From a virus: 64,000 bases of DNA. The number at the start of each line of letters is the position of its first letter. Position 1 is the stretch's first letter. Under the pieces are notes generated by a model. It worked only from the letters and a program-made list of their open reading frames with translations, was not told where the DNA came from and ran no database searches. This document shows, one piece after another, positions 24,956-59,683 of this stretch. The position numbers were made by a program, and so were the translations under genes. Location of the stretch: the UHGV virus genome UHGV-1376088; one strand, written 5' to 3'.

Positions 24956-24972
24956 TTTAAACGAATTTTAAT

Positions 24973-25046: not shown

Positions 25047-25231
25047 ACAATTTAAGACAGGCGCTTGCAAGTTTGAGGGAAGTCATATTAGGCCCCGTGT
25101 CCATACAGCCTCCACGCACTCTGCCTGTCTAACCCTTATGTCCTGAATGCCTGCTACGACTACATCTGACTTTTTATCGGACATTAAGTGTCGAGCTATT
25201 TTTGTCAGGACTCTCTATAAAAGGTAACAGA

Positions 25232-25669: not shown

Positions 25670-25689
25670 CTAAAATTTATATATTTTTC

Positions 25690-25780
25690 ACCACCTTAGC
25701 TTAATGGTAAAGCAGCGAGCTTATACCTCGTAACGACAGATAATCGGCTGATCTGGGTTCGAGTCCCGGAGGTGGTACCA
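25690..25780 (+). tRNA. class-II-shaped tRNA with anticodon UAU (Ile AUA), long variable arm
   Basis: Acceptor accacct/aggtggt; D gctt-aatggta-aagc; anticodon stem gcgag/ctcgt with loop cuUAUac; ~21-nt variable region; T-loop ttcgagt; A73; CCA. Confidence 0.55.
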
Positions 25781-25806
25781 TTAGAAAGTGTCGAGAGAGT
25801 TAAAAT

Positions 25807-25894
25807 GGAGAAGTGGCAGAGTGGACTATTGCACCTGACTTGAAATCAGCCGATCGGAAACGGTCCGTGGGTTCGAATCCCATCTTCTCCTCCA
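25807..25894 (+). tRNA. tRNA-Ser (anticodon UGA)
   Basis: Acceptor ggagaag/cttctcc; D gca/tgc; anticodon stem ctga/tcag with loop cuUGAaa; long variable arm; T-loop ttcgaat; U73; CCA. Confidence 0.65.
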
Positions 25895-27647: not shown

Positions 27648-27678
27648 GGCCCTAGAGTTAATCTAGGGCTATTGTCTT
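27648..27678 (+). terminator. rho-independent terminator
   Basis: gccctag-agttaat-ctagggc hairpin plus U-rich tail. Confidence 0.55.
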
Positions 27679-31876: not shown

Positions 31877-31886
31877 TGATAATAAG

Positions 31887-31918
31887 ACCGTCACGTTATA
31901 TACGTGGCGGTTATTTTC
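31887..31918 (+). terminator. rho-independent terminator
   Basis: ccgtcacgt-tata-tacgtggcgg hairpin followed by ttattttctt. Confidence 0.5.
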
Positions 31919-36121: not shown

Positions 36122-36170
36122 AACAATCTAAGTGTTGCTAATTGAGTTTAGCCATTTATATTGAAAAATA

Positions 36171-36205
36171 GCCGGCATATGTTTTCATATGTCGGTTCTC
36201 TTTTA
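36171..36205 (+). terminator. rho-independent terminator
   Basis: ccggcatatg-tttt-catatgtcgg hairpin followed by ttctcttttatt. Confidence 0.5.
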
Positions 36206-41412: not shown

Positions 41413-41607
41413 ATGTCTCAAATTCGTGGCTATATTTACAACGGCGAAACCAAAACTCTGCCAAATGGCGGCACTACTACCGTTGAAAACATGTTGACTG
41501 CTTTGAAAACCAAATTTGTTGCCCTGCGCACCGACGGCTCATTCGACCATGTCGTAAACAGCGATGGCTATCTGGTTATCACAAACCGCACCGGCTCTAA
41601 AGCCTAA
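41413..41607 (+). CDS. small hypothetical protein
   Basis: ORF. Confidence 0.4.
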   Translation: MSQIRGYIYNGETKTLPNGGTTTVENMLTALKTKFVALRTDGSFDHVVNSDGYLVITNRTGSKA

Positions 41608-41772
41608 GTAAGGTTTAAATTACAATTTGCTCTTATTGAACGCTTGATTGCGTAATATGGGTCAGTGGGGCCCAAATGATTATAGGACTCCGTATTTTGC
41701 ATTTATATGCAGCGGGGTCCATTTTTCTTTTTTGCCTTGATTGGCTGTTATATTTTTGTTGGAGAGATATAT

Positions 41773-42108
41773 ATGTCTTATGTTGATGACGAGTTTTTAG
41801 CTATTCTTGGCAATGTGGAAAATACAGCAAAAGAAGCTAAAGACGAAATAGAAGCTGCTGGCGAAATGGGCGAAGATATTATTTTGAACCTTCAAAATAT
41901 CTTTGAACAAGGTGAAGATGTAGGCGTAGATGCCGAAGATTTAAAAATTATTATGGAAGCTCGTTCTACTGTCCATATTAAGCCAGAAATTATTGAACGT
42001 ATTCTCAGAAATTTTAAACCCGAGTTTTGGACTAGATCTTCTGTAACTATTGATGTTGCTATGGAAGCCATTAAAAACTCTCAAAATATCCTGGACGATT
42101 ATTATTAA
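41773..42108 (+). CDS. hypothetical acidic protein
   Basis: ATG with SD 'ggagag'; the track's longer ORF starts in an intergenic GC-rich hairpin region. Confidence 0.4.
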   Translation: MSYVDDEFLAILGNVENTAKEAKDEIEAAGEMGEDIILNLQNIFEQGEDVGVDAEDLKIIMEARSTVHIKPEIIERILRNFKPEFWTRSSVTIDVAMEAIKNSQNILDDYY

Positions 42109-42123
42109 ATCGAAGGGATAAAT

Positions 42124-42702
42124 ATGATAATTGCTAACCAGGGCCAGGCTGTTATGAGAATCCTTTTTGCAAAGCTTGCAAATGAATTGGGTTTAAAATA
42201 CAAAATTCCAAAAAAGATTAAGCCTAGAAATTTTGATGTATTTTTTAAGAATCTGCGATTTAAGACTATAAATATTGGTCGTGATCCTTCAGGTAGATAT
42301 TTTGTAGAAATAGATACCATGATTGATTTTAGAAAAACGGTTAGAGAGATTATTGATGATTATGGTTCTAGCCTATCGCTTTTATCATATGATTGCAGTC
42401 TTATTCATGTCGCCGACAGGGGTCATTTTGTAGAAATATCTTTACCGAATAGGAATGCTGTTTTGTCTATATATGACCGAGATGTAAATCAACTTGGGCA
42501 ATTCAATAGAAGCTCTTATAATAGGGAAGATGGCGAGTATGGGATAAAAGGAATATTTAGCGAAAATGGTTCCTTATATATTCGCAAGTCTTTAATTGAT
42601 GATATATACATATATTGTCGTTCCGCTGACTGTGTGCGGAGAGATCTTCTTGTTCTTCTTGATGGCAAAACTTTTGAATATATAGCAAGAAGAGGGCATT
42701 GA
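42124..42702 (+). CDS. hypothetical protein
   Basis: SD 'aaggga'. Confidence 0.45.
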   Translation: MIIANQGQAVMRILFAKLANELGLKYKIPKKIKPRNFDVFFKNLRFKTINIGRDPSGRYFVEIDTMIDFRKTVREIIDDYGSSLSLLSYDCSLIHVADRGHFVEISLPNRNAVLSIYDRDVNQLGQFNRSSYNREDGEYGIKGIFSENGSLYIRKSLIDDIYIYCRSADCVRRDLLVLLDGKTFEYIARRGH

Positions 42703-42765
42703 TATTAATAAATATATCCTAATGATATTGAAATTAATATTTATTAAATATAAATGGAGTTTTAA

Positions 42766-43275
42766 ATGGATAGAAATAAAATATATCAGAGGATTATGTT
42801 ATTAAAATTAATCGAAGGTTCTGGACTTAATACTCCATATGAGATGGACCTCGATCTAGTTGGCAATGCCTTTCTGGGCAAAGAGTATAAAATTTTCTCA
42901 GATGATATAGATAATCTTGGAAGAGTTGTTATTGTGGGTACAATGAATCTTACCCCAACAGTGATACCTAAATCATTCAGTTCAAGATTAAGAACATTCC
43001 TTTTCTTTTTCAGGAAAGAAAACGAATTGCATCTTGTGAGTATAAAAACGAGATACATAAATGCTATTACTTATAATTTTATGAAAGATATCGGCGCTAA
43101 AAAGATATACTATACGACTGACGAAAGCGAAACAAGATTGGTGTCTAGCGACTTTAATGGTATAGAAAAGATCTATTATCATCCAGTATCATCTATTCAT
43201 AGAAGCGGCATTTCATATAAAAATGTTATGGATGATTTTAGCCTAAGGTGCTCCAGTTTGATAAATTTCTTATAA
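42766..43275 (+). CDS. hypothetical protein
   Basis: SD 'ggag'. Confidence 0.45.
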   Translation: MDRNKIYQRIMLLKLIEGSGLNTPYEMDLDLVGNAFLGKEYKIFSDDIDNLGRVVIVGTMNLTPTVIPKSFSSRLRTFLFFFRKENELHLVSIKTRYINAITYNFMKDIGAKKIYYTTDESETRLVSSDFNGIEKIYYHPVSSIHRSGISYKNVMDDFSLRCSSLINFL

Positions 43276-43285
43276 GGTGTCTTAT

Positions 43286-43918
43286 ATGGATCTTATTAAT
43301 TTGAATAAGCCCTTAAATAAATTGATCATATCTAAGATTTTATTAGATGGAAACTATAAGGCGGATATTTATAAATTTAAGGAAATCATACCATATATTT
43401 ATGCCATTCGTACTAACAATAGAGGGCAAATTTTTCTTGAATTCGTAACAGAAGTCGACATGGGATTTGATGTAATGGCTCGAGACACTGGAAGGGCATT
43501 TATTAGTCGTTCCGTCTGGAATCTTTTATGTTATGGTGATTTAGGAAATTTTATAAATTTATCGTGTGAACTGTATAATGAAAATCAAAGATATCTTAGC
43601 TATCTTATGAGCCATCTGCCCAATCATTACAATGATATAATAGAGGTTCAATACCGAGAAGGGCAAAAATATTTTATTTATTACTTAGTTGAATTTATAG
43701 CCGGCTCGAAAGAAAATCTATATTCAAAAATTCATAATATAAGCTCCAATAAGATGGAAGCTTTTCGAACTATGCAAGGTGAAGTATTTAATTCCCTTAC
43801 ATACAATATGAAGCGTAATGAAAAATACGATATGAAAATTTCAGGCAAGAGCTCGTATATAAGTCATATGGATGAATACACATTTTTCGAATTTTATGAT
43901 AGATATCGAAACATTTAA
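43286..43918 (+). CDS. hypothetical protein
   Basis: ATG with SD 'aaggtg'. Confidence 0.45.
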   Translation: MDLINLNKPLNKLIISKILLDGNYKADIYKFKEIIPYIYAIRTNNRGQIFLEFVTEVDMGFDVMARDTGRAFISRSVWNLLCYGDLGNFINLSCELYNENQRYLSYLMSHLPNHYNDIIEVQYREGQKYFIYYLVEFIAGSKENLYSKIHNISSNKMEAFRTMQGEVFNSLTYNMKRNEKYDMKISGKSSYISHMDEYTFFEFYDRYRNI

Positions 43919-43929: not shown

Positions 43930-44649
43930 ATGCAAGGCAAAATTAATATTGAAGTTTTGAGTCAAGACAAAGCTATTATCCATGTTCAGGATCTGCAAGG
44001 TAAATGCACATCTAAAATGGTTACAACAAAAGCTGCCGCTGCGGCTCTGGCTGGCCCTAATGGTGAAGCTAAAGATTCTGGATTGATCCCCCAAAACATT
44101 TTAAGAATTTGGGAGAATTCACAATACAAGGGCTATTTGATTTATCAGCCGTCTAGAATGTTTGGCATTAAATATGAAGGAAGGTCATTGCGCCAAGTCA
44201 AACTTCCTGGAATTGTTATGAAAGCAGTTGTGAATTCAAGAGGGCAATTTATCGGCGATAGAAGCTCTATCTTTATTTGTAATGGCGATGAAATCAAACC
44301 CGATACAAAACTTTGGCATTTACGAATGAACAATTATAGCTCCGGTTATGGTATTTGCTGGGGCGATAATAAGAATATTGCAAATTCGATTCTAGCTAGT
44401 GGAAACCTATTTGATATTGAGCAGCTCCCGCAATTATTCTTTGGATCAACATTTAACTCGGATTTGGATAATACATATATCTTTGACAATTCCATGTTAA
44501 GAAGAATTAATGAAAATCCTTCAATTCCTAATCATAGAAATTTAACAGTTCAATTTTTTACATTGAAAGGGTTAGAGAATGAAGATTATAATCTGGAATC
44601 CGAATTAATGACCGAATATGATGCGGTTCTTAGCGGCATTATGATGTAA
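43930..44649 (+). CDS. hypothetical protein
   Basis: SD 'aaaggaag'. Confidence 0.45.
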   Translation: MQGKINIEVLSQDKAIIHVQDLQGKCTSKMVTTKAAAAALAGPNGEAKDSGLIPQNILRIWENSQYKGYLIYQPSRMFGIKYEGRSLRQVKLPGIVMKAVVNSRGQFIGDRSSIFICNGDEIKPDTKLWHLRMNNYSSGYGICWGDNKNIANSILASGNLFDIEQLPQLFFGSTFNSDLDNTYIFDNSMLRRINENPSIPNHRNLTVQFFTLKGLENEDYNLESELMTEYDAVLSGIMM

Positions 44650-44677: not shown

Positions 44678-46054
44678 ATGAGTTTGAGCGTTGCTGATCT
44701 GATGGGCGAAATGGATTTTCGTTTGCCGAAGGTTGTACAAAGCAAAGAAGAAGCAGAAGATGGCGATTCTATTGTAGCTGAAGACGGTATCTATAAATTG
44801 GTCCGCGCCATTATTGGTGACTTCTGGATTAAGGCAGAAAGCTTTAAGACTAAGATGGTTGGAATGCCGCAGCTGTCAGAAAGCTTTACACAGTCATCTG
44901 AAATTCCTAAAATCCCAGGTGAATTGTTTTACGGTATTATCAGATTCTACCGTAAAATTTACGAAACAAATAAAAATGAAGTGATGGCCCAGATTTGGTG
45001 GGATAAAGAAGAGCGCAAATTCCTGGTTGAAGTTCCAGAACAAGAAGTTGCAGGTGCTTCTATTACTTATCAAAGAACCGGCGGATGGTATGATGATCCT
45101 AATAAGGTCCTTGTATTGACATCTCACTCACATCATACAATGGGTGCATTCTATTCATCCGTAGACAATTCAGATGAAAAAGGCAAACATGGAATTTACT
45201 CATTTGTATTTGGCAATTTAGTAAATAAGCCTGACGGAACATTTACATATAAAACCGTTCAGCGCGTATGCTGTGCAGACGCATTAATTCCATTACAGCT
45301 GGAAGATATTTTTGATTTTACCGAAGGTTGCGAATTTCTTTTCGAAATCCCAGAAGAGGATTACGCAAAAGTTAAAGCTAAAGTTTATAACTATGGAGCT
45401 TATGCTAATTATGGCAAATCTAAATCAAAGGGGTTTCCTTACACGGGCGGCCAATCAACTCCCGCAAACGTCTCAAAAATCGAAGACAACTATGAATTTT
45501 ACTCAGGATATCTGGGTTATTCTTACGGGAGTTATGACAGCGCTTGGGATTCTGTGGATTATCCTAACAATGCTTCAACTGTAGGATCAAGCGCTATAGA
45601 AAAACGATGGCAAACTGGTGCTGAAGCCACGGTTGACAGAGTTAAATATGGATATATTTCCTCTATACTGAGAGGAATGTCCAAGCCTGGCGATGAGCTC
45701 CTGTATAACTATTTTGAATTCAAAGAAATTGAATCTATTGTTTCTGATTTTGTAAATGCTGTAAGCCTGCCGGAAACACATCCGTATTATATGTTCGCAG
45801 AGCTTCTGAACTCATTTATGTCTAATCTTTTGGAAGGTCTTTCAGATGTACAATATGGTGATCGTGAAGGGCTTAGCAAAATTGAAGATCCATCAAAAGC
45901 ATTTGCCGTTGTGATTGCATCTGCTATTAGTGGTGTGGAGGATTCTTTTAATAGTATGGCTTCTCCTAATAGCGCTGTTGACCTTATGAAAGACCATAAT
46001 TTGAGCTTTTTGTATCTACCAGAACGAATTGCCGCTTATTTAAAAGATTTTTAA
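44678..46054 (+). CDS. JAB/MPN (JAMM) metalloprotease-domain protein
   Basis: 'SHSHHTMGAFYSSVD' = JAMM motif HxHx7Sx2D; 458 aa with an uncharacterised C-terminal half. Confidence 0.6.
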   Translation: MSLSVADLMGEMDFRLPKVVQSKEEAEDGDSIVAEDGIYKLVRAIIGDFWIKAESFKTKMVGMPQLSESFTQSSEIPKIPGELFYGIIRFYRKIYETNKNEVMAQIWWDKEERKFLVEVPEQEVAGASITYQRTGGWYDDPNKVLVLTSHSHHTMGAFYSSVDNSDEKGKHGIYSFVFGNLVNKPDGTFTYKTVQRVCCADALIPLQLEDIFDFTEGCEFLFEIPEEDYAKVKAKVYNYGAYANYGKSKSKGFPYTGGQSTPANVSKIEDNYEFYSGYLGYSYGSYDSAWDSVDYPNNASTVGSSAIEKRWQTGAEATVDRVKYGYISSILRGMSKPGDELLYNYFEFKEIESIVSDFVNAVSLPETHPYYMFAELLNSFMSNLLEGLSDVQYGDREGLSKIEDPSKAFAVVIASAISGVEDSFNSMASPNSAVDLMKDHNLSFLYLPERIAAYLKDF

Positions 46055-46066
46055 AGGAAATACCTT

Positions 46067-46969
46067 ATGCAAAATGCTGTACTTGGCAGAAAGAAAATTG
46101 AATTTATTTCAACTCAAGATGAAATCAATAAGCATCAGAAAGAAGTTGAAGATTACGAAATGACAAAATTAATGCAACGTCTTTCGTCCGCCGAAACTAA
46201 TGCTCCTAAAAAGCCGCTTGACCGCATTGTTGTTGTTGGTTGTGGCGGAACTGGCTCTTGGTTAATTCCAAAACTTGCAAAAACCATCAATGATATGAAG
46301 CGCAAGAAATTACTTGCTAATCATTTTTCTTTGATTCTTGTTGATGGCGACCAAATTGAACCTAAAAATTTGATTCGGCAGAACTTTGTTGAATCAGATA
46401 TTGGTAAAAATAAAGCGGAAATCATGGCTCTTCGATATGGGGCAACGCTTAAAGATATTAATGTCCAATATATCGACAAGTATTTGACCGATAAGTCAAG
46501 TTTTGACACTAATCACTTTTCCCATATCAATGTTTTGCAGAATATGATTTACGATGACAATTATTGTGTCATATTCAATCTTGTTGATAACCAAAATGCA
46601 AGACGCGCGGTTCACTCATTACAGTTCTGCGGCTGGATTGTTGATATTGGTAATGAACTGGCACATGGCCAATTGTTTGCAACTCCATATGGTTTGACTA
46701 GTGGCTTTATTGGATCATTAAGCTTCTTCACTATGTCTCCGGAAACGTTGACGGCAGATGAAGAAGTGAAAATTTATTCTTGCGCCGAAGCCGATGCGGA
46801 TACAGAGCTGGAAGAACAGTTCTTGGTTGCCAACGATACAGCTGCTTTGGTTGGACATAACTGGCTATGCTCTTTAATGAGCGGTCCAGATGTAGTTCCT
46901 GCAAGAATTAATTTTACATGCTTGCCAATTCCGACCGTAGAAACAGTGTTGAAAACAATCCGGTTTTAA
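46067..46969 (+). CDS. E1-like (ThiF/MoeB family) adenylyltransferase
   Basis: Rossmann 'RIVVVGCGGTGSWLI'; 'LILVDGDQIEPKNLIRQ' matches the E1 DxD...NLxRQ motif. Confidence 0.6.
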   Translation: MQNAVLGRKKIEFISTQDEINKHQKEVEDYEMTKLMQRLSSAETNAPKKPLDRIVVVGCGGTGSWLIPKLAKTINDMKRKKLLANHFSLILVDGDQIEPKNLIRQNFVESDIGKNKAEIMALRYGATLKDINVQYIDKYLTDKSSFDTNHFSHINVLQNMIYDDNYCVIFNLVDNQNARRAVHSLQFCGWIVDIGNELAHGQLFATPYGLTSGFIGSLSFFTMSPETLTADEEVKIYSCAEADADTELEEQFLVANDTAALVGHNWLCSLMSGPDVVPARINFTCLPIPTVETVLKTIRF

Positions 46970-46977
46970 TGTATATG

Positions 46978-47010
46978 GTCGACATTAAATATGTCGACCG
47001 TTCTTTACTT
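46978..47010 (+). terminator. rho-independent terminator
   Basis: ggtcgacat-taaat-atgtcgacc hairpin followed by gttctttactttc. Confidence 0.5.
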
Positions 47011-47024
47011 TCAAGGAAGTTAAA

Positions 47025-48566
47025 ATGGAAGATAAAAATTTGTGTTTGAGCTTTTTAGCGCCTATGATGAATTTGTCTCAAACATTTTTAAATATTATCG
47101 AAAAAATTGAAAACGAAGAATGCTCTATTGACTCTTCGTTTCCTGAAAAGTTATTCAATAAGACGCCAAAAGAAGATGTTTTAAACGCGATTGAAACTCT
47201 CATTGATTATAATAATTTATTTTTGATTGACTTTGATGAGTATTCGAAAAAAGTAAAAACCTTATCAGATTTCGTTGGTAATTGTAACAACACAATTCTT
47301 TTCAGAAACTTTAGAACTGATAAGGGTCGTGAAGTTTGCTATATCAATAAGCAGATCCCAGACATTTATTCAGATAGGATTAAAGAGATCCATTCTAATA
47401 TTAGACCCTTAATAGGCCGCCTAACTCCTAGACTGAATTTAATTAAAAATCAGAATTCTACAGATTCATATGTAGACATTAATTACGATCAGATGGCCAT
47501 CAAATCAGATATTTCTTCGTTCTTTCGCTCTGTAAGATTTGAAAATGTTATTAAATACCTCTCTAAGACTTTCCTTGTTAAAAATATACTTATGTATAGC
47601 AAAAGTCAAACTGAAAACAAAGAGCTTAGAGTATTTGAGCGAATTGAAATTGCTTTATGGGGATTTATTAGTTGTCTATTCCATAATGGTATTATCCCTA
47701 CTGGAGCTAGATATGCAAATGATTTAGCCGCCTGCTATTTGAATAATCTTGTTTTTAATACCTTTAGAAAGGACATGCTATATTCGAATCGTGCAAGAAT
47801 CTATGTATATGTAGATGACCTGCTCTTTCTCGGAGAGGAAGGCAATGTTAAAGAATTTTATGCGGAATTCGAAAAGGCTATCAATAAAGGCGGACTATAT
47901 CTGAATTATAAGAAGACTCAATATTTTTATCCTAAAAATGGAATTCTTGAGTATTCTTCTTTGGGCAGAACTAGAAAATTTGACTTCACAACTGGTTTTG
48001 TTTCTAAAGTTGATTCGAAAGCCCGCAAAAAATGTTTGGATATTATTAAAGAGCGCCGCGAATACGATGCCTCTGAGAAGGGTATCATTAATTATGCATT
48101 ATATATGAGGCATGGAGCCAATAAGATTGTCAATCCAGATATATTAATGCATTCTTATTTTAATGATAAATCCGAACTGTGGGATAAACTTATAGCAGGT
48201 GAATTGAATCTGAAATTGAATAAGAGTATTTTTGATCCCACTAATCTGAAATATAAGGATATATGTATAATGTCAAAAGATATTGATGTCGGTTTTCTTT
48301 CCGCTCATCAATTCCTTGACATTACAGATGCGATAGCAGAATTTGTAAAACTGTTTATCCTCGACAATCCTTTTGGTCTTAACCTATATGGAATTAATCT
48401 AACAGAATCCAATGAGGGTAATTATAATTTAATTCTGAATTTGGTAAGACAACGATCCAGAGGCACTGCGAATATAATCCCATGTCCTTTAATTTTCAGA
48501 AAAGATTTCCTAAACGGACTTTATGTAGAAGGCAAAGATGAAAGCGCTTTAAATGGATGGATATAA
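47025..48566 (+). CDS. reverse transcriptase (standalone, unclassified)
   Basis: Motif A 'IKSDISSFFRSV', motif B' 'GIIPTGARYANDLAACYLNNL', motif C 'YVYVDDLLFLG', motif D 'LYLNYKKTQY'; extra N- and C-terminal regions; SD 'aaggaag'. Confidence 0.7.
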   Translation: MEDKNLCLSFLAPMMNLSQTFLNIIEKIENEECSIDSSFPEKLFNKTPKEDVLNAIETLIDYNNLFLIDFDEYSKKVKTLSDFVGNCNNTILFRNFRTDKGREVCYINKQIPDIYSDRIKEIHSNIRPLIGRLTPRLNLIKNQNSTDSYVDINYDQMAIKSDISSFFRSVRFENVIKYLSKTFLVKNILMYSKSQTENKELRVFERIEIALWGFISCLFHNGIIPTGARYANDLAACYLNNLVFNTFRKDMLYSNRARIYVYVDDLLFLGEEGNVKEFYAEFEKAINKGGLYLNYKKTQYFYPKNGILEYSSLGRTRKFDFTTGFVSKVDSKARKKCLDIIKERREYDASEKGIINYALYMRHGANKIVNPDILMHSYFNDKSELWDKLIAGELNLKLNKSIFDPTNLKYKDICIMSKDIDVGFLSAHQFLDITDAIAEFVKLFILDNPFGLNLYGINLTESNEGNYNLILNLVRQRSRGTANIIPCPLIFRKDFLNGLYVEGKDESALNGWI

Positions 48567-48615: not shown

Positions 48616-49476
48616 ATGCATAATATGATTTATGTAGTGAGTAGACGTGTAACTTCTCAAGAGTCTGAAGCAATTAAACGTATTTTTTCTTTAGCCCATA
48701 TTAGCCCAGAGTTTGTACGAATTATTGATATCGATTCTGAAGATCTGAATGTTTCTGGTAAATCTATTTTCCTATGCTTCAATGAGACGTCCGGGAAAGT
48801 AACTATGCCGCTGTCTAAAGAACGAGGATATCCGGGATATGCATTTCTTAAAGACTTTACTGATGATGTACAAAAGGTTGCGGTTTGTATCTTATCAGAA
48901 TCTATTTCCCATTATGCATTGCCACATTGCTTGGTATCTGATAAGGCTATGCTCTGGAATTGCGTCCAAAAGATTGCAGCTAAATTCTCCGAATGGTATC
49001 CGAGTTTAGTTCAACATAGTCAGCCTCAGCCTCAAGTCCAAGAGACTAAGCAAGTAGAGACCAAGCAGGAACCTGTTGATAATGTTACCCATAAGGCGCC
49101 TGAGAATGTACAGGAACTCCCTAAAGAGGCTGAACCTGAGCAACCCTATGTCCGACCTGATAATGCTCCTACAGCATTCTCTGTAGTCCAGGAAACGGCA
49201 GATGGAACCGAAGTCTCATTTCAGGTTGACGAAATGATTGACCGTATGATTGACTCGATGAAGCTGAGCGACCCTGGATTAGGTAAATCTTTAAAACTTA
49301 TGGAATCTGTTGTGTTGGAATCCAACAGTGGTCAGCGGATTACAGTGTATCCTGGAAATATCGTTAAAGACCCAAGCGAAGGTGTACATATATCCTTTAA
49401 GGATGTTTGCTCATTAGTTAAGCTTGCATTAATTTCAGAGTCAGATAGAATTCGTTTTATTTTGAGAAGAGAGTAA
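48616..49476 (+). CDS. hypothetical protein with acidic/Gln-Pro-rich linker
   Basis: ORF with 'QPQPQVQETKQVETKQEP' low-complexity segment. Confidence 0.45.
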   Translation: MHNMIYVVSRRVTSQESEAIKRIFSLAHISPEFVRIIDIDSEDLNVSGKSIFLCFNETSGKVTMPLSKERGYPGYAFLKDFTDDVQKVAVCILSESISHYALPHCLVSDKAMLWNCVQKIAAKFSEWYPSLVQHSQPQPQVQETKQVETKQEPVDNVTHKAPENVQELPKEAEPEQPYVRPDNAPTAFSVVQETADGTEVSFQVDEMIDRMIDSMKLSDPGLGKSLKLMESVVLESNSGQRITVYPGNIVKDPSEGVHISFKDVCSLVKLALISESDRIRFILRRE

Positions 49477-51165: not shown

Positions 51166-51741
51166 ATGAGCGTTTATTTTTGTGGTATTGACTTATCTGT
51201 TACCAATACTGGATTAGCAGTTGTTGAGTACCTGGGTGATAGTAAATTTAATCTAATTGATATTAAGTCTATTACGCCCAATCCGAGGACAAAAGGTTTT
51301 AATAAGAAATTAGAATCTTTAGAATGTTTTATTTTTGCGACAGAGTCCTTTAGTTCAATTAAGGACTCTAAATTTTTTGTATTAGAAAACTATAGCTTTG
51401 GTTCACCAGGACGATTAACTGATCTTGCAGAATTGGCGGGATTGTATAAGGGACATATTATACGTGGACTTGGTAAAAGCTATGATGTAATTGCACCGCA
51501 AACAGTTAAAAAAATAATTACAGGCTCTGGAAGAGCCGATAAAAATGAGGTTCAAGAATCATTAAAAAATTTTGTTGTAAATATTGAGAATTTCACATTC
51601 AACAATTACGATGAATCTGATGCTGTTGCGGTTGCCGTGTCATACGGCTTGCAAATGGAAGAAATACAAAATGGAAATAAAGAAAATAAAAAAGATATTA
51701 GCGAAGTTAAACAAAGTAATAGAAGAAGAAAGTCCAACTAA
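51166..51741 (+). CDS. RuvC-like Holliday-junction resolvase (RNase H-fold)
   Basis: 'VYFCGIDLSVTNTGLAVV' matches the RuvC/YqgF N-terminal catalytic motif; acidic residues downstream; Lys-rich tail. Confidence 0.55.
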   Translation: MSVYFCGIDLSVTNTGLAVVEYLGDSKFNLIDIKSITPNPRTKGFNKKLESLECFIFATESFSSIKDSKFFVLENYSFGSPGRLTDLAELAGLYKGHIIRGLGKSYDVIAPQTVKKIITGSGRADKNEVQESLKNFVVNIENFTFNNYDESDAVAVAVSYGLQMEEIQNGNKENKKDISEVKQSNRRRKSN

Positions 51742-51964
51742 TGCCGAGTTTATTTTATCTGTTGCTAATTTGCTGCGAGTCTTTTCGCTTGCGCATATAG
51801 TATTAGATGCCAATATTCCTAAATTTAATTATAACGATAGCTTTGAAGTTGAAAAAATGTGTTTAACCTATCCGGATAATTTTGGATTGCAACTTATGCT
51901 TCAGGTTCATGTTCTAATTAAAATGTCTGAACGTTTTTCCGATTCACCCGAAATAGAGAAATAA
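51671..51964 (+). CDS. hypothetical protein
   Basis: ATG with 'ggaag' RBS; overlaps the resolvase 3' end in another frame (the track start 51584 is a TTG). Confidence 0.35.
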   Translation: MEIKKIKKILAKLNKVIEEESPTNAEFILSVANLLRVFSLAHIVLDANIPKFNYNDSFEVEKMCLTYPDNFGLQLMLQVHVLIKMSERFSDSPEIEK

Positions 51965-51965
51965 T

Positions 51966-52513: not shown

Positions 52514-53176
52514 GTGTCTAAAATAGAAATGAACGTTTCGCCCGACGTCAAAAGGGCAATGACTAACTTTAAGACTGCAATGAATAAGAAGTATGGAGAA
52601 GGTAGTGATATTTTTGCCAACGGGCAGTATCAGAATTTTGAGTCTATCTCTTCTGGTTCTGCCATTCTTGATGGTCTTCTTGGTAATGGAGGATGGGTCA
52701 GGGGCCGTGTTCACGAAATCTTTGGCGCGTCCGGTTCTGGCAAATCCACTATTGTATCTTTGACTTGTGCAAATGCACGTCGACAATATCCGGATAAATA
52801 CATTTTATATGTGGACGCCGAACAAGCGCAAAACCATGCCTATATGAAAAAATTGGGGCTTGATTGCGAGAACGATGAAGGTGTCGTATTCCTCCAGATG
52901 CAGGAAGCTGAGAATGTCTTTGAAGTTATTGACGGTGCGGTTGCTACCGGCGCCTTTAGTTTGGTTGTCGTTGATAGTGTTCCAGCGTTAATGACTAAAC
53001 GCGAATTGAATGGCGATTACGACAAAGAAACGATGGCCGAGAAAGCTCGCTTCCTGTCTAAAGCTTTGCCCAAGCTTTTGGAATCTTTGAAGAAAGCTAA
53101 TACCACTATGATTTTTGTGAATCAGGTAAGGGACAAGATGGATATGTGGGGCGGAGTTACTACCCCTGGTAATAGT
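52514..53176 (+). CDS. recA: RecA/UvsX-family recombinase, exon 1 (N-terminal core up to the loop-2 region)
   Basis: 'ISSGSAILDGLLGNGGWVRGRVHEIFGASGSGKSTI' (Walker A), 'LVVVDSVPAL', 'IFVNQVRDKM...TTPGNS'; GTG start with SD 'aaagga'; homology stops at ...TTPGNS, then 14 junk codons to a stop. Confidence 0.75.
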
Positions 53177-53470
53177 ATCTATGGTTACTATTTAGTAACT
53201 GTAGATTTCTGCCGTTCATAGTGGAAACATTATGAATCATGATAGCGGAATTAAGCGAGAAAATCCTCCCTCTTAGATAGGACAACTCGAACCGAAGGCT
53301 GGCCCTAACGGCCCAGTCAGGGGCAACGCATAGAAGCTGAAACTAATAATAGAATATAATGCTTCCACGAGGCCGCTACACCTAAGTCCTTTGGATATGG
53401 TGAAAAAGTATGCTGAACTGCATTGTAATGATGCAGAGGCAGAGATAAAAAGCTCTGCGATAACAAAATG
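53177..53470 (+). other. intervening sequence in recA (candidate self-splicing intron, ~294 nt, no ORF)
   Basis: RecA homology resumes in the same frame at 53471; exon 1 ends in U and the intervening sequence ends in G; the segment is locally GC-richer (ggctggccctaacggcccagtcaggggcaacgc) than flanking DNA. Confidence 0.5.
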
Positions 53471-53905
53471 GGAAAAGCCATTCCGTTTTATTGCTCAAGT
53501 CGTGTTAAAGTAAATTCGACCCCGTCAATGCGAATTAAAAATTCAGCCGGCGATGGATTCATTGGTCAAACCGTGGACTTTACTATAATTAAGAATAAAG
53601 TCGGTAGTCCTTTTGGTGTTGGTGAATCTAATCTTTATTTTGGTGTTGGTTTTAATAAAGTTGAAGAACTTATTGAAGCTGCTATTGCCAAAGATGTTTT
53701 TGAAAAGGGCGGAGCCTGGTACACATTACCTTATTGTACTGAAGATGGCGAAGTTTTAAAATTTCAAGGTAAAACTGGCCTTAAATCATATTATGAAGCC
53801 AATCCTTCCGAATTAGATAAACTTCAAGAACTTGTTAACAATGCGGGACGTGATGATGAAATTCAAGTAGTTGGGGCGCCCGGTACAGTTGAGGATGGAT
53901 ATTAA
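53471..53905 (+). CDS. recA: RecA/UvsX-family recombinase, exon 2 (C-terminal part)
   Basis: 'KAIPFYCSSRVKV...IIKNKVGSPFGVGESNLYFGVGFNK...GGAWYTL' aligns to RecA '...KFYASVRLDIRR...[24 protein letters not shown]...AGAWYSY'. Confidence 0.7.
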   Translation, partial: GKAIPFYCSSRVKVNSTPSMRIKNSAGDGFIGQTVDFTIIKNKVGSPFGVGESNLYFGVGFNKVEELIEAAIAKDVFEKGGAWYTLPYCTEDGEVLKFQGKTGLKSYYEANPSELDKLQELVNNAGRDDEIQVVGAPGTVEDGY

Positions 53906-54475: not shown

Positions 54476-56233
54476 ATGGACTTTGTATCCACTCCTGAAA
54501 ATCCAAATGGTGATATTAAACCCGAAGATATCGGGAAGTATACGAATTTACATGCTCATAGCATTTATAGTCCTTTAGATGGCTTCGGTAAGCTTGAAGA
54601 ATATTGCGAACGGGTAAAAGCTCTAGGGATGAAAGGCTTATGCCTTTCTGAACATGGCAATATGATTGGTCATCATGAACAGGCTAAGATTTGTGCTAAG
54701 CATGGCATTAAGCCTATTTTTGCTAATGAAGGGTATATGACTCTTCATGCCGGATCTATTAAAGAAAAGATAGAGGGTTATAAGGCGAACTATCATATTT
54801 TGCTTATTGCTATTAATGAGCAGGGTTATAGAAACCTTATGAAAGCTACATCTATTGCTTGGACACGTTATAAATATTATAAGCCACGCTTTGATTTAGC
54901 ACTTCTTGAAGAATGCAACGAGGGCCTGATTTGTACATCTGCTTGTCTTGGCGGACCAATTAATCAGTTATATTTAGATGGCCGACCTGAAGAGGCTGAA
55001 CAGGTTGCGCTAAAGCTGAAAGAGATTTTCGGCGATAGATTTTATTTGGAAAAAACTTATACCGGCTTAGAAGAGCAAGATATTGCTAATAAGAATTTGG
55101 TTGAGATTTCTAAAAAGCATAATATACCTATGATTATTACTTGTGATAGTCATTATGTTTATCCTTGGCAATCTGATAGTCATGCAAAATTGGTTATGGT
55201 TAATACTGGCGGTCAAATCAATAAAGCGATTAAGGCTGCCGGCTTAACTGACTCTAGCAAAGAAGATGCTGACGTAGATAGCAACTCTATGTTCTATCAG
55301 CCTAGTCAGTATTATGTTAAACCACATCATGTATTGGTTGAAGAATATTATTCTAATCCTGAAGATGAAGAAGCCTTTGCCAATACTAATAAAATTGCAG
55401 ATATGTGCAATGTGGTTTTACCTAAAAATGAAGACATCATTTTTCCTTCACCATATTCTGATCCCGATTCTGTTTTAAGAGGACGGGCAATGCAATGGTA
55501 TTCGGAATACTCTAAAAAACTTTCTGATGAACAAAAAGCATTGTATTTAGATAGGCTGGAAGAAGAGCTGGATATGTATTCTAAAATGGGCTTTAGTTCT
55601 TATCCTTTGGTGCTGCAAGAGATTCTTGATGAAGCCAAAGCGAAAGGCATTATGATTGGCCCTGGCCGAGGATGCCTATTTGAGGGAACTAAAGTTCTAA
55701 TTAATAGATCCGGATCCATATATTATTGTCCGATTGAATTTGTCAAAGTCGGCGATATGGTATGGACACATAATAGCAGATGGAAGTCTGTATATCATAC
55801 CACTAAATATGTTGTAGACTATAGAGATATGGTTACTCTCGAGACAGAATATGGTATGATGCACCTCACAGAAGACCATAAAGTAAAAACAAAAAACCAT
55901 GGATTTATCCCTGCTATTGAATTAGACGGACAAATACACACACTGGATAGAGGAACTTTATCCGATGAAATTCTGTCTAAAGTTGAAGATTATAAAACCG
56001 ATTCAATCGAAAATTTTGAACTTTCTAGCTTCTATAATGAGGATGAACCTGTAAGGGTTTATGATCTTATGGTTGATGAAGATTGTTCTTTTAGAACTAA
56101 TATCTGTATGGTGCACAATAGTGCCGCGGGGTCTTTACTCTCTTATGCATTAGGTATTACTGCTATTGACCCTATACCATATGGACTAATGTTCAGTCGT
56201 TATCTTAACGCCGGACGCGCAAAACTACCGGTT
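54476..56233 (+). CDS. dnaE: DNA polymerase III alpha (DnaE) exon 1: PHP domain through the GPGRG...SAAGS...LNAGRAKLPV region, containing a mini-intein
   Basis: PHP 'NLHAHSIYSPLDGFG...CLSEHGNMIGH'; 'GIMIGPGRG[intein]SAAGSLLSYALGITAIDPIPYGLMFSRYLN'; homology to E. coli '...ERVSMPDFDVDFC' ends at ...KLPV; the ORF then reads 18 non-homologous codons to a stop at 56287. Confidence 0.8.
55673..56119 (+). other. mini-intein (Hint domain, 149 aa, no homing endonuclease) in DnaE
   Basis: Inserted between GPGRG and SAAGS; begins 'CLFEG' (Cys1) and ends 'VHN' followed by Ser+1; length consistent with a mini-intein. Confidence 0.7.
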
Positions 56234-56290
56234 ATTGAAATTAAAGGCTACCCATTAAAAGAGTGGCTAACAACAGAAAGAAAATAAAAA

Positions 56291-56776
56291 ATGTCTTTAC
56301 AATACCTTCAAAATGAATTGCTACCAAAATTAAATACTTCAACATTTGCATGCTATTCTGCTTATACCAACTTGTCGGTAAAAGAAAAGTATGAATTCAT
56401 TAAAGAAGTAGTTAAATCCGGCTTTGATCATAATTGGATGTCCTTTATGGACACGTTAAATATTTCCTGTGATGAAGACGATTTGCTATTAAGCTGTTTG
56501 CCAGAAGTAGTTAATCCGAGTGTTTATTTTACAGCTCGTAAAAATGGTAACATGAATTTAAATGAAATTACCAATATTTATGGACTAACAGCCAGAATCC
56601 TTGAAATGGAAGACGGCGAAAAACGTTTAGATTCTCTTATTCTTAATGATAGGTTAAATGCAGGAATAGTGTGGCATGTACATCAACCGGATTCCTTATT
56701 GGAATTAGCTGCGGTTTTATATTTTATGCTAGTGTCTAATGCTGCATATATACGAATTGAAGGTAGTAAAGGATAA
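56291..56776 (+). CDS. hypothetical protein
   Basis: First ORF inside the dnaE-interrupting block. Confidence 0.45.
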   Translation: MSLQYLQNELLPKLNTSTFACYSAYTNLSVKEKYEFIKEVVKSGFDHNWMSFMDTLNISCDEDDLLLSCLPEVVNPSVYFTARKNGNMNLNEITNIYGLTARILEMEDGEKRLDSLILNDRLNAGIVWHVHQPDSLLELAAVLYFMLVSNAAYIRIEGSKG

Positions 56777-56802
56777 AATCTTATTGTAAAATATACTATA
56801 CC

Positions 56803-56835
56803 TATAATGATATAGGTTGTTTTTTACAAGAAAGG
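56803..56835 (+). terminator. rho-independent terminator
   Basis: cctata-atga-tatagg hairpin followed by ttgtttttta. Confidence 0.5.
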
Positions 56836-56841
56836 ATTTCT

Positions 56842-57054
56842 ATGCCAGAAACTAGTTCTCCTACAGGCTTTTCAGTTCCTCAATGGACTAATGGCTCAGG
56901 ACAGGAAGCTTTACCGTTTGGGAATGGTGTTTCTAGACGGGTAACTACAGATGATGATATCAGTGTACGTGACATTAACGACATTCGTCGTGTCATTGAA
57001 GCACTGATGATTCATACACATTCGCATCAAGACGTAGTTGGAGGTGGTTGCTAA
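56842..57054 (+). CDS. small peptide (70 aa), candidate RiPP precursor
   Basis: SD 'agaaagga'; ends 'HTHSHQDVVGGGC'; first gene of a tight operon with a radical-SAM/SPASM enzyme. Confidence 0.45.
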   Translation: MPETSSPTGFSVPQWTNGSGQEALPFGNGVSRRVTTDDDISVRDINDIRRVIEALMIHTHSHQDVVGGGC

Positions 57055-57653
57055 TGGCGATCAGCTTTTTTGAACTCAATAACACGATGACGGTCGCCGA
57101 AGGCAATTATGATAAAGCGCTTGAAGTTCTAGAGGTTTCCGAAGTTGGATCCTTAGAAAGAGCAGAAAAGATTTTTTATTTTGCCTCCAACATTGAAGAT
57201 GATGAATATTCTCTTTATGCTTATAATGCTCTTAAAGAGGTTATCGATAAAGAGCTTGAATTTATTGATGTTGAGTCTGAACAATATCCGCTTCTGAGAT
57301 TCTCTCAATTTTATTGTGAGAAATATGCATTGCCAAGAAATGATAAAGATTTGGCTGCGCTTGACCTTAGAGGTTTGCGAGAGTTTGTAGATCATTTGTA
57401 TAAATGTTACGTTGCACTTGACGGAATTCAAGAGTCTGATTTTAAATATCTTAAATACCAATTCGCATTCGATTATGAGACAGATTGGTTATGGGCGTAT
57501 ATAAAAGATATTTACGAAAAGATTAAATCGTATAAAACCCGATTTGGTTATAATGATTATATTATGGGATTCTTTGATGTGGATGATTCTGCTCGTAAAG
57601 CAATTCCATCTCAGATTCAAGCTTATTTTAGAGACAATCCGGTGAAAGATTAA
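57054..57653 (+). CDS. hypothetical protein (operon partner; possible peptide chaperone)
   Basis: taATG coupling to the peptide gene; ATGA coupling to the rSAM gene (the track start 57048 is a TTG). Confidence 0.45.
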   Translation: MAISFFELNNTMTVAEGNYDKALEVLEVSEVGSLERAEKIFYFASNIEDDEYSLYAYNALKEVIDKELEFIDVESEQYPLLRFSQFYCEKYALPRNDKDLAALDLRGLREFVDHLYKCYVALDGIQESDFKYLKYQFAFDYETDWLWAYIKDIYEKIKSYKTRFGYNDYIMGFFDVDDSARKAIPSQIQAYFRDNPVKD

Positions 57654-57654
57654 A

Positions 57655-58770
57655 ATGTATATTCTTAGTATTGTATTCAGTAATCATTGTGATTTGGATT
57701 GTTCTTATTGCTGCATACAGTCTAAGAATATGTCTCCTGTATTGGCGAATTTAGAACAGATTAAAGATTTCATTAGAAAATATGCAAAGACAGGATCCAT
57801 TGTTGAATTTTATGGAGGTGAACCTACCCTTCATAAAAAAGAGCTATTTGATATCATCAATTTCTGTAGCTCTCTTGATATGGACATTGGCACTAGGCTA
57901 TATACTAATGGATTATTTGCTAACTGGACAGAGGAAGAGATTCTTTCTCTGTCTTACATTTTAGATGAAGTTCTCATTTCTCTTGATGGATCTACATTTG
58001 AAGAGAATAAACAGCGCTTTGAAAATCAGGCCCAGTTTGATGCTGTCCTGAATAATATTAAAACAATGCGAAAATCTGAGGATTTGAACATTACTTTAAG
58101 TTCTGTTTTATATGGTCGATCCAAATTTGAGAATATGTTCTCTAATTACAAATTCTTTTCGGCGCTTGGTGTTGATACCTTTAGCTATGAGCCGGTCACT
58201 ATATATAGGACAGACAAAGCTGTTATTATCCCTAGGGATTTCTTTGGTGCTTTATTTAAGGGCATTATGGAAATTTCTAGGGACATTTTTATTTCCGGAA
58301 AAGAGCGATCTTTGTTTGTAGCAAAAGAACTGTTAGCTGCTTCTTGGTATCATCAGGGAGACAAGGATTTATGTTCTAAGAACGTAAGAGCCATTTCTCC
58401 GCGCGGCAATATTTATATGTGTCGTGATCATGCAGCTAATGAAGAAGAGATGTTTTATTCTCCTAAAGTTATTCAGTTCTTTAATAAGAATAACCTGAAG
58501 TCAGATAATGAATCATTCCCACTAGTGGAAGAAAACGAAAAAGACTTAACGCATTGTCCTGTTAAAAATATACAATACAGACAAGCTGGTGTTGAAAAGG
58601 ATCTATACTGGTTATCTGATTCGTGGCAAGATTTTGTAGTAAAACCTATGTATTCTACGATTCTTGCTGTAAACTCTCAGGCCGATAATCTGTCTGAAAT
58701 AATTGATTATTTTTATCCTAAAGTTGATGAGTTATTAAAAATAGCTATTAGTCAGGAAGGAATTAAATGA
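57655..58770 (+). CDS. radical SAM / SPASM-domain enzyme (anSME/PqqE-like peptide-modifying maturase family)
   Basis: 'SNHCDLDCSYCC' = CX3CX2C; 'VEFYGGEPTLH' SAM-binding GGE motif; additional C-terminal Cys cluster (CSKN...CRDH...HCPV); 371 aa. Confidence 0.7.
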   Translation: MYILSIVFSNHCDLDCSYCCIQSKNMSPVLANLEQIKDFIRKYAKTGSIVEFYGGEPTLHKKELFDIINFCSSLDMDIGTRLYTNGLFANWTEEEILSLSYILDEVLISLDGSTFEENKQRFENQAQFDAVLNNIKTMRKSEDLNITLSSVLYGRSKFENMFSNYKFFSALGVDTFSYEPVTIYRTDKAVIIPRDFFGALFKGIMEISRDIFISGKERSLFVAKELLAASWYHQGDKDLCSKNVRAISPRGNIYMCRDHAANEEEMFYSPKVIQFFNKNNLKSDNESFPLVEENEKDLTHCPVKNIQYRQAGVEKDLYWLSDSWQDFVVKPMYSTILAVNSQADNLSEIIDYFYPKVDELLKIAISQEGIK

Positions 58771-59045
58771 AGTTGGAAGATATTAAAGTCGGCCAAATTG
58801 TTAAAGATAAGTTTGACAATGAATATATTGTCAAGGAAATTATTGAAGATGACTCAATGCCGGTTAAATTGAAATGTACTAAATTTTTGAAACCAATTAA
58901 TGTTCAAAAAATTGGTGACATATATTTTAAGGAGGCTGGCATAAGTTTTTGGATTTATAAATCTGGAAAAGATGCACGAGTATGCGGCTGTGATGTTGAT
59001 TGTATTACCGTTGAATCTCTCAAACTGAAAGGTGAATCAAAATGA
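58767..59045 (+). CDS. small protein, 'MKLxDIKVG' paralog family
   Basis: MKLEDIKVGQIVKDKFDNEYIVKEI...CITVESLKLKGESK; paralog of 10847..11122. Confidence 0.5.
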   Translation: MKLEDIKVGQIVKDKFDNEYIVKEIIEDDSMPVKLKCTKFLKPINVQKIGDIYFKEAGISFWIYKSGKDARVCGCDVDCITVESLKLKGESK

Positions 59046-59683
59046 AACTTGAAAATGTCAAAGTCGGTATGCTTCTTAAGGACAAATTCGGCAACGAATA
59101 TGAAGTTATTGAAATTAATAGAAATGACGACTTTCAACCTGTTCGAGTAAAATGTGTTAAATTTGTAAAAAGAGTTTGCTTCAAAACTGAACGCGATGTC
59201 ATTTATCGCGCCGGGTCTATGGCATGGCTATTAAAAGACCATTCACATGTATTGTCCATTGATGATGACTATGGAAGATTTATAAAGGAAACCTTTTATC
59301 CAGATCTTTCTGATGCAATGTTTAATGAAGCGGTATCTGTCAAATTAAGTATTTCTAATTACAATTATCGCAATTTTGTGCTCGGAACTCAGGAAGCAAT
59401 CAGCAGAATTGAAATCACACTAAGAGATTTGAGTCTTGCTGAAAACTTTTTGCATAGAGGTAATGTCAGCCTATATGATACTGTGTTTGATCAGGCTTAT
59501 ACTCCATATGAGGTATTGGCATTTACGGACGACAAAGTTTGCTTAAGGGTTAAGACGAGATTCCGTAACACTGACAATAAGACTAAATACATGGAGTCTA
59601 TGGCATGGATACCATTTTATGATGGTAAAAGTCCAGACAGTGATGATGTTACCACAAAAGATTTCATGATTATGAAAGGTTAA
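59042..59683 (+). CDS. 'MKLxDIKVG' family protein with C-terminal extension
   Basis: MKLENVKVGMLLKDKFGNEYEVIEI... N-terminal 90 aa paralogous to 58767 and 10847. Confidence 0.5.
   Translation: MKLENVKVGMLLKDKFGNEYEVIEINRNDDFQPVRVKCVKFVKRVCFKTERDVIYRAGSMAWLLKDHSHVLSIDDDYGRFIKETFYPDLSDAMFNEAVSVKLSISNYNYRNFVLGTQEAISRIEITLRDLSLAENFLHRGNVSLYDTVFDQAYTPYEVLAFTDDKVCLRVKTRFRNTDNKTKYMESMAWIPFYDGKSPDSDDVTTKDFMIMKG

Follow-up and report, generated by a model that had tools for sequence, protein, structure and literature searches.

The UHGV virus genome UHGV-1376088 was analyzed over a stretch of 64,000 nucleotides (the window), which is part of an uncultured phage of ~182 kb; a homolog of its reverse transcriptase (RT) with 99% identity, P0001, is encoded on a contig of 182,328 bp. 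All large open reading frames (ORFs) in the window are on one strand, the GC content is ~36%, and no relatives at the nucleotide level were found among the 50,697 phage records searched. The subject of this work is a cluster of three consecutive genes at positions 44678-48566, located on the + strand exactly as given in the initial annotation, that encode a JAB/JAMM metallopeptidase, an E1-like adenylating enzyme and a free-standing RT. The cluster is preceded by the gene of an E2-like protein and, further upstream, that of a candidate ubiquitin-like (Ubl) tag; a terminator-like hairpin lies between the E1 and RT genes, and the gene of a conserved protein of 286 amino acids (p286) follows the RT. 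Profile scans of the window place SpoVG and Whirly proteins upstream of the cluster and RuvC, RecA, and DnaE downstream of it, in agreement with the phage replication context noted before. We lean toward the view that the locus consists of two adjacent but separable modules, a conjugation cassette resembling the PRTRC systems and an RT that heads the next gene block.

The E2, JAB and E1 genes and a candidate tag

The product of 43930..44649 (+ strand), which had been suggested as an E2, matches the Pfam family Prok-E2_D (PF14460) with E=5.2e-5 and 23.5 bits, at a gathering cut-off of 25. Six of seven homologs from other phages match the same family, that of Bacillus phage Edson above the cut-off (40.1 bits). 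The candidate catalytic residue Cys143 (in the sequence ICWG) and the FN-x-DL motif (F175-N-x-D-L) are invariant in the alignment, and both the Cys and FN-x-DL are also found in Salmonella phage Arash, Vibrio phage D69, Acinetobacter phage ME3 and Bacillus phage KLEB27-3.

The JAB/JAMM metallopeptidase (44678..46054, + strand; 458 amino acids) has a PRTRC_A-like N-terminal part (approximately residues 30-205), followed by a C-terminal extension of ~250 amino acids with a low-complexity linker and a helical region. It matches the Pfam family Prok-JAB with E=8.6e-5 and 22.8 bits, narrowly under the cut-off of 25 bits, and the NCBIfam model PRTRC_A with E=9.6e-13 and 48.1 bits over residues 32-205, where the equivalog cut-off of 101.8 is not reached. 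The metal-binding motif is complete: the JAMM signature HxHx7Sx2D reported for this protein is present as H150-S-H152-x7-S160-x2-D163, together with E101, and these residues are kept in the homologs of five other phages. Motifs in JAB, E1 and RT were located by regular expression or read from the translation.

The E1-like adenylating enzyme (46067..46969, + strand; 300 amino acids) belongs to the ThiF family (Pfam, E=2.5e-15, above the cut-off). The best of 15 E1-type models is PRTRC_ThiF from NCBIfam (E=7.9e-18, 64.7 bits), the cut-off of which, 144.75, is not reached. The protein contains a glycine-rich nucleotide-binding motif (G58-C-G-G-T-G63), the expected DxD...NLxRQ arrangement (D93-x-D95...N101-L-x-R104-Q105) and a conserved cysteine, Cys239, within S-C239-A-E; the S-C-A-[ED] sequence is kept in all phage homologs. 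Models for E1-E2 fusion proteins of the Cap2 type in PADLOC match the E1 domain only, with E-values up to 2e-10, and a PADLOC scan of E2, JAB and the neighboring proteins (p64, the candidate tag described below, was not included) gave no match. Other PRTRC components appear to be missing: for E2, p213, p169, p192, and p286 there was no NCBIfam match at E<=0.1 to PRTRC B, C, D, E or the ParB-like F, and no ParB was present among the window ORFs scanned.

The trio of E2, JAB and E1 genes is found in phages of several hosts. A tblastn search with JAB returned nine phage records, and E1 as a query returned the same set: Acinetobacter phage ME3, Salmonella phage Arash, Vibrio phages D69, D181, and D148, Bacillus phages Edson, WH1, and KLEB27-3, and one fecal contig. 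JAB and E1 occur together in seven cultured phages, all with genomes of 180-235 kb, and the gene order E2-like, JAB, E1 was the same in every phage genome inspected. Relatives of E1 were furthermore identified on 197 plasmid records, mostly large non-mobilizable replicons of Bacillus and Clostridium; on the C. difficile plasmid pHSJD-312, an annotated E2-D protein and ThiF show the same arrangement. No RT was found beside the trio in the inspected cultured phages or the plasmid.

Such a tagging kit has so far been little described in phages. Labels in ME3 and KLEB27-3 are limited to "PRTRC system protein A" and "ThiF", and our literature search gave no paper on what PRTRC or Prok-E2_D cassettes do in phages. 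In Arash, E2 and E1 are labeled "structural protein", which we considered as evidence of a location in the virion and rejected: the source proteome comprises 116 proteins, including ribonucleotide reductases, and is unspecific. These labels should be regarded as unreliable.

A candidate tag, p64 (41413..41607, + strand; 64 amino acids), is encoded 2.3 kb upstream of the E2 gene and is likely to be the tag of the cassette. The predicted model of p64 is a beta-grasp fold from which a conserved tail with a small terminal residue (N-R-T-G-S-K-A) is exposed, the combination expected of a Ubl. The tail, as N-x-T-G-S-K-A, does not vary within the phage clade of the window, nor does it in an outlier with 40% identity or in a sister clade. 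Searches of p64 against Pfam gave no family match, and hence none to a Pfam Ubl family.

Other phages encode similar tails, likewise upstream of the trio. Vibrio phage D69 encodes a protein of 263 amino acids (L008 3262-4053) with three tandem repeats of ~65-85 amino acids, each of which ends in [KR]TGTKG; by analogy with polyubiquitin, it looks like a poly-tag precursor. In Salmonella phage Arash, an unannotated ORF of 66 amino acids (L007 107-307), which is likely to encode the tag, ends in ...FSRRTGTKG, and Acinetobacter phage ME3 has an ORF of 63 amino acids with a looser version of the tail (...DGNKAA). Alignment of the p64 profile with the short proteins of D69 and ME3 by hhalign was not significant. 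Nevertheless, we judge it very unlikely, by our own estimate and not by a computed statistic, that the six-residue tail would recur by chance in independent lineages and each time in an equivalent place with respect to the trio. The cassette is therefore read as tag, E2, JAB, and E1, and we read the tag as a new family with the tail TG[ST]K[AG] in a phage-borne PRTRC-like cassette. The Arash ORF overlaps an annotated gene, gp251c, in another frame; gp251c looks spurious, and the Arash tag gene is currently called in the wrong frame.

Between the tag and E2 genes lie four fast-evolving ORFs (41707..43918, + strand) of 133, 192, 169, and 213 amino acids. Within the clade their products are 21-72% identical or undetectable, compared with 49-78% for the trio, and they have no Pfam, PHROG, PADLOC or NCBIfam matches. 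We considered whether this interval holds a conserved extra component; all-against-all BLASTP showed none common to different phage lineages.

Taken together, the data support a prokaryotic ubiquitin-like conjugation system, as first proposed for E1 and JAB, and not cofactor biosynthesis, because an E2-like protein resembling Prok-E2_D is encoded adjacent to them, E1 has a conserved cysteine, a predicted beta-grasp tag is encoded upstream, and no sulfur-transfer partners were found. E1 should thus not be annotated as a thiamine enzyme.

The reverse transcriptase, the hairpin and the downstream block

The RT gene (47025..48566, + strand) encodes a protein of 513 amino acids that matches the Pfam family RVT_1 with E=5.4e-9, above the cut-off. 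The catalytic motifs already recognized from the sequence (A, D162-ISSFF; B, P225-TGARYAN; C, Y262-VDD; D, LYLNYKKT), and in addition motif E (SSLG), are invariant in 15 homologs. As far as these motifs allow us to judge, the RT is catalytically intact. Its lineage is unclassified and is new within a known class of enzymes. An AlphaFold model (predicted local distance difference test, 86) matches solved prokaryotic RTs and contains the novel terminal regions that the initial annotation had described, predicted here as a helical N-terminal region of ~100 amino acids and an alpha/beta C-terminal region of ~140 amino acids.

The placement of this RT among known groups is ambiguous. Foldseek matches comprise retron Eco8/Ec86, G2L4, DRT9, group II, DRT2, and Abi-P2 RTs, with E-values of 4e-6 to 4e-4 for the retron, DRT9, DRT2, and Abi-P2 RTs; the scores are modest and similar, with no clear nearest group, and viral RTs score likewise. 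In a PDB profile search, G2L4 was the sole match (E=0.48). PADLOC models match weakly and in the catalytic core only (CRISPR-associated RT, 3.7e-11; retron type VI; UG17; UG36), and the NCBIfam model group_II_RT_mat gives E=7e-6 and 25 bits at a cut-off of 300. DGR-type RTs, from diversity-generating retroelements (DGRs), have a motif B of the form ...SQ, and retron RTs have NAxxH and VTG; the motif B of the window RT, PTGARYAN, is neither of these, and no VTG motif is present.

No RNA partner was identified near the RT gene. Rfam searches, at the gathering score over the 64 kb and at E<=1 over 40-60 kb, gave only tRNAs, the non-coding flanks of the RT gene measure 55 nt upstream and 49 nt downstream, and the ORF interrupts no gene. 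A DGR was rejected as well, as a repeat search found no template/variable repeat pair in the window. RuvC and p172 are separated by a gap of 224 nt (51742-51965), which was considered as a template RNA and dismissed: its variation is in third positions and a TAA stands just before the next ATG, and it is most likely, from its coding pattern, a small unlisted protein gene that is part of an ORF at 51584-51964. Also discarded were a protein of 512 amino acids encoded upstream of E2 in Bacillus phage Edson, which has no similarity to the RT, and a parallel between YVDD and the YIDD of G2L4, as the RT of the sister clade has YLDD.

The RT family is narrow. A set of 5.8 billion proteins yielded 15 clusters and IMG/VR 8 loci, every one on a contig of 120-188 kb, and tblastn against the 50,697 phage records returned nothing; in the searches made, the family is confined to the clade of the window and one sister clade, where the RT has 627 amino acids and is 31% identical. 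The C-termini of the homologs are variable and have no conserved terminal Gly or Ala.

The RT gene is followed by that of the two-domain protein p286 (48616..49476, + strand), its conserved and syntenic downstream neighbor. p286 is 62-88% identical across the clade, which exceeds the conservation of the RT; in two relatives (L003 and L005) its start codon lies ahead of the RT stop, with an overlap of 8 nt, and it still adjoins the RT in the sister clade (L021). The suggestion that it could be a Ubl or E2 protein found no support in profile and PDB searches: p286 and its distant homologs were negative in Pfam, PHROGs, PADLOC, NCBIfam, and PDB. A library of 1.8 billion proteins contains 44 representative clusters of p286. 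In searches for relatives outside the clade, the alignment proved too divergent, scans with single proteins gave nothing, and a degenerate pattern at the DNA level led back to the same clade only. The order downstream is RT-p286-...-RuvC-RecA-MazG-like-DnaE, and the region from Whirly to the gene after RuvC (~12 kb) is syntenic in all RT-bearing genomes. The adjacency of E1 and RT in these genomes is therefore not independent evidence of a connection.

The hairpin that separates the E1 stop codon from the start of the RT gene (46975..47011, + strand) was found by a consensus scan and has an 11-bp stem, a 5-nt loop and a T-rich tail; it is listed below as 46975-47001. Its fold has a z-score of -3.5, and equivalents occur at the same place in all relatives, with four of the 11 pairs showing compensatory double changes in the alignment. 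In the sister clade an equivalent hairpin of unrelated sequence is located at the same place. Seven such hairpins with a T-tract are found on the + strand of the 64 kb (511-536, 4197-4223, 11543-11564, 27648-27670, 31886-31912, 36170-36197, and 46975-47001), all of them between ORFs, five directly after a stop codon, and usually 20-45 nt ahead of the next start codon; from the RT to position 64000 there are no further ones. They look like the transcription punctuation of the phage, and would place the Ubl cassette in a unit from ~36.2 kb to 47.0 kb. The distance from the T-tract to the RT start codon is 14-24 nt, which leaves no space for a sigma-70-type promoter; expression of the RT must therefore depend on read-through or on a promoter internal to E1. 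The hairpin is thus punctuation, and not proof of independence.

Interpretation of the locus and alternatives

Our preferred reading, a conjugation cassette next to a separable RT block, implies the following scheme. E1 would adenylate the C-terminus of the tag, which would then be held as a thioester on Cys239 of E1, passed to Cys143 of E2, and attached to lysines of some phage or host protein. JAB might trim tag precursors such as the triple repeat of D69, remove conjugates, or both. Behind the terminator-like hairpin, the RT and p286 would head the block that runs through RuvC, RecA, and the MazG-like protein to DnaE, and the RT could serve as an accessory repair or replication polymerase in phage DNA metabolism. 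The two modules are considered separate because no RT accompanies the trio in any other lineage, the hairpin is conserved, and the RT is coupled more tightly to p286. On the same grounds, together with the synteny of the whole block, the original proposal that the RT is joined to E1 and JAB as one unit is not supported. By analogy, a role of the RT in the phage's own DNA replication or repair is the most likely one, because its position beside p286, RuvC, RecA, and DnaE is fixed, it is kept down to 31% identity, and G2L4 offers a precedent. Its pattern of conservation is that of a core gene and not of an accessory one.

Several observations weigh against this interpretation. The Pfam scores of the window E2 and JAB are narrowly below the gathering cut-offs, and p64 is 2.3 kb away from E2, with four unrelated ORFs in between. 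The RT adjoins E1 in every genome that has the RT, the sister clade included, and the proposed repair role draws on gene context and a match with E=0.48. Finally, the hairpin may attenuate transcription or stabilize RNA, and not fully terminate.

The strict adjacency of E1 and RT in the ~20 loci examined, which extends to the 31%-identical RT of the sister clade, raises the question whether the RT belongs to the E1/E2/JAB system as a component or client; it could be tagged or activated through conjugation, for instance, or the Ubl machinery could modify its product or partner. Some co-transcription of E1 and RT is likely as well, as the interval from the hairpin to the RT gene is too short to hold a separate promoter. 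That an E1 can act on an enzyme with a polymerase fold is known from type II CBASS, where the CD-NTase is the substrate of the Cap2/Cap3 machinery. We nevertheless consider such an integration of the RT distinctly improbable. The adjacency lies within a syntenic region of ~12 kb and is not independent, the trio is found without an RT in cultured phages and on plasmids, a dedicated tag candidate is present (p64), and a conserved hairpin separates E1 from RT. Modification of the RT in the manner of CBASS was rejected on account of its C-termini, which are variable and do not share a terminal Gly or Ala. The main alternative to a role in replication or repair is rather a DRT- or Abi-like exclusion function together with p286, that is, a phage-carried defense system of DRT, Abi or retron type that would make cDNA from an unrecognized RNA against competitors or host immunity. 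The tight coupling of the RT to the conserved p286, the top Foldseek matches to retron Eco8/Ec86, DRT9, DRT2, and Abi-P2, and the weak partial PADLOC matches (CRISPR-associated RT at 3.7e-11, retron VI, UG17, and UG36) fit this possibility, to which we give a small but real chance. However, the PADLOC matches never extend beyond the catalytic core, and no non-coding RNA partner was found in the short flanks (55 and 49 nt), by Rfam in 40-60 kb, or in the 224-nt gap, which is coding-like. Moreover, the fixed position of the RT in a replication and recombination block and its deep retention are unlike those of accessory defense cargo.

Two further explanations, both of which the initial annotation had named as challenges to its own proposal, appear very unlikely. 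One holds that E1 and JAB are sulfur-carrier or cofactor enzymes of the MoeB/ThiF kind, with p64 as a carrier similar to ThiS or MoaD. Yet ThiF and MoeB equivalog models give 14-37 bits on E1, far under their cut-offs of 150-300, while the PRTRC models score best; the trio includes an E2-like protein with a conserved cysteine; the tag ends in G-S-K-A and not in the G-G of sulfur carriers; and no rhodanese domain, ThiS, ThiG, ThiH, MoaE or sulfur-metabolism genes were found nearby. The other assigns the RT to a group II intron or DGR, or likewise to a retron, and so to a mobile retroelement or diversity generator. It would account for the weak match to group_II_RT_mat (E=7e-6, 25 bits) and for a motif A-B spacing that fits a group II-like insertion and allows alignment to G2L4 without large gaps, and introns, in this case of group I, are abundant in these phages. 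Group II intron RNA domains were, however, absent at the gathering score and at E<=1, the ORF has flanks of only 55 and 49 nt and interrupts no gene, the window contains no template-repeat/variable-repeat pair, and PTGARYAN, with no VTG, is unlike the motifs of DGRs and retrons. The introns in neighboring genes are of group I and therefore do not explain the RT. We give the retroelement reading next to no weight.

Comparison with known systems and further features of the window

The cassette can be compared with several described systems. Class 6d of Iyer, Burroughs and Aravind (2006; PMC1779556) combines a Ubl, a JAB with a JAB-N domain, an E1, an E2, and a helical protein, and is found on integrative and conjugative elements and plasmids. 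From its gene content and profile matches, the window cassette appears to correspond to this class, and to be related to PRTRC (NCBIfam TIGR03735-03741) without being an equivalog. The PRTRC models are the best for both the window JAB, with its N-terminal extension and JAB domain, and E1; the E2-like protein resembles the Prok-E2_D type; a single-domain tag, E2, JAB, and E1 are encoded by separate genes, and all are carried on a mobile replicon. In contrast to PRTRC proper, the window proteins score 48 versus 102 and 65 versus 145 bits, matches to B, C, D, E or F are lacking, the tag has its own invariant TG[ST]K[AG] tail, JAB carries the 250-amino-acid C-terminal extension, and the carrier is a large phage of lytic type. 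To our knowledge, no function has been assigned to PRTRC-type cassettes since their description in 2006.

CBASS Cap2/Cap3 and Bil have recently been shown to be bacterial ubiquitin-like weapons against phages. The initial comparison of the window genes with these systems (Bil and CBASS Cap2-Cap3) holds insofar as a conjugation system is indicated, but the nearest kin in sequence are the PRTRC-type cassettes. What is shared with Bil (BilABCD) and type II CBASS would be the enzymatic logic that we infer here, with adenylation by E1, thioester transfer by E2, and reversal by JAB. In contrast to those systems, the E1 and E2 of the window are separate proteins, there is no CD-NTase, and the cap2_3 model gives 33.7 versus 320 bits. 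The window system is also encoded by a phage and not in a host defense island, and its biological direction may be the opposite. Among phages, a Ubl and a JAB have been described as TAPI/TAPK in the tail-assembly gene clusters of lambda and T1, where E1 and E2 are absent (PMC1779556); both there and in the window a Ubl and a JAB peptidase are phage-encoded, but the window has a full set with E1 and E2, located among early and replication genes.

For the RT, the comparison lies with G2L4 and other domesticated group II-like RTs. G2L4 is reported to act in DNA repair (10.1101/2022.03.14.484287). Like G2L4, the window RT is free-standing, with no intron RNA; G2L4 is its best, non-significant PDB match and ranks sixth in Foldseek, and the recombination and repair genes around the window RT would suit a role in DNA repair. 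Unlike G2L4, to which it has no significant sequence relationship, the window RT has YVDD (YLDD in the sister clade) and not YIDD, is phage-encoded, and has novel N-terminal and C-terminal regions. With the defense RTs (retrons, DRT2, DRT9, UG, and Abi) it shares the RT core fold and the weak partial PADLOC matches, but it has no adjacent non-coding RNA, the matches cover only the core, and it is a core gene and not the cargo of an island. An intact RT as the core gene heading a RuvC-RecA-DnaE block is unusual in a double-stranded DNA phage and, if the proposed role is true, would lengthen the list of domesticated RTs in DNA metabolism.

The presence of Ubl machinery with its own tag in large phages of virulent type, infecting several bacterial phyla, offers a tractable route to function: Salmonella phage Arash, Acinetobacter phage ME3, and the Bacillus phages have all been cultured. 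It also suggests that phages might tag proteins of the host or their own, as a means of offense or counter-defense. Speculatively, and with more doubt than belief on our side, the phage clade of 140-190 kb and the unrelated large phages of Salmonella, Vibrio, Acinetobacter, and Bacillus could each encode a complete Ubl pathway of their own, with a previously unrecognized TG(S/T)K(A/G) tag family, that modifies host or phage proteins during infection, for example against immunity of the Bil/CBASS type; the clade RT would then be a core replication or repair enzyme, possibly coupled to the pathway.

Several relatives carry insertions in the genes of the cassette. In JAB, an insertion is located exactly within the JAMM motif, after residue 156 (L012, L013, L014, and L016), and that of L016 (5780-6028) is a group I intron by Rfam (74.9 bits). 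In E1, insertions of ~220 nt to 1.2 kb are found within the NL-x-RQ motif, after approximately residue 100 (L003, L004, L005, L011, L012, and L014), with no Rfam family match. Insertion in catalytic motifs is typical of conserved, expressed phage genes. JAB and E1 of the window are uninterrupted, whereas its recA is split into 52514-53221 and 53468-53905 by an insert of ~250 nt (53222-53467); recA of the relative L002 is intact, with 363 amino acids. Over its full length the insert matches the Rfam model for group I introns only weakly (12.4 bits, E=1.1); it is taken as a probable group I intron, small and divergent. In Acinetobacter phage ME3, the JAB gene is apparently split at the first His of HxH (L006 6968-7402 and 9428-10078), which is the intron target site in the clade of the window. 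The N-terminal piece, called 'PRTRC system protein A', ends in ...MDIH, and is followed by ~2 kb with a tRNA-Met and three small ORFs, after which comes a piece that resembles the C-terminal part.

Downstream, the DnaE-type polymerase of the window is apparently fragmented (54476-59683), with a PHP/Pol III alpha piece of 603 amino acids followed by ORFs of 161 and 201 amino acids; a radical SAM protein of 371 amino acids (57655-58770) comes after these two ORFs. The DnaE piece of the sister clade (L021) has 825 amino acids and contains an intein and a LAGLIDADG domain.

Elsewhere in the window, 14 tRNAs are present, with a tRNA cluster at 17695-25894 in which one tRNA (22075-22148) has an odd two-base anticodon call. 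A full-length methionyl-tRNA synthetase (MetRS) is encoded at 13249-14913, and a Ro60-like vWA protein at 18287-19882, where Rfam at the gathering score gave no Y-RNA. An adhesin of 597 amino acids (7083-8876) has YadA head, stalk, and membrane-anchor domains and internal 54-nt repeats in its gene; this YadA adhesin, similar to trimeric autotransporters, hints at a Gram-negative host. Finally, a 104-nt repeat with 73% identity occurs in stretches between called genes (11026-11129 and 58943-59046), and its sequence suggests two paralogous small coding regions (~90 amino acids, MKLKDIKVG...) and not RNA elements.

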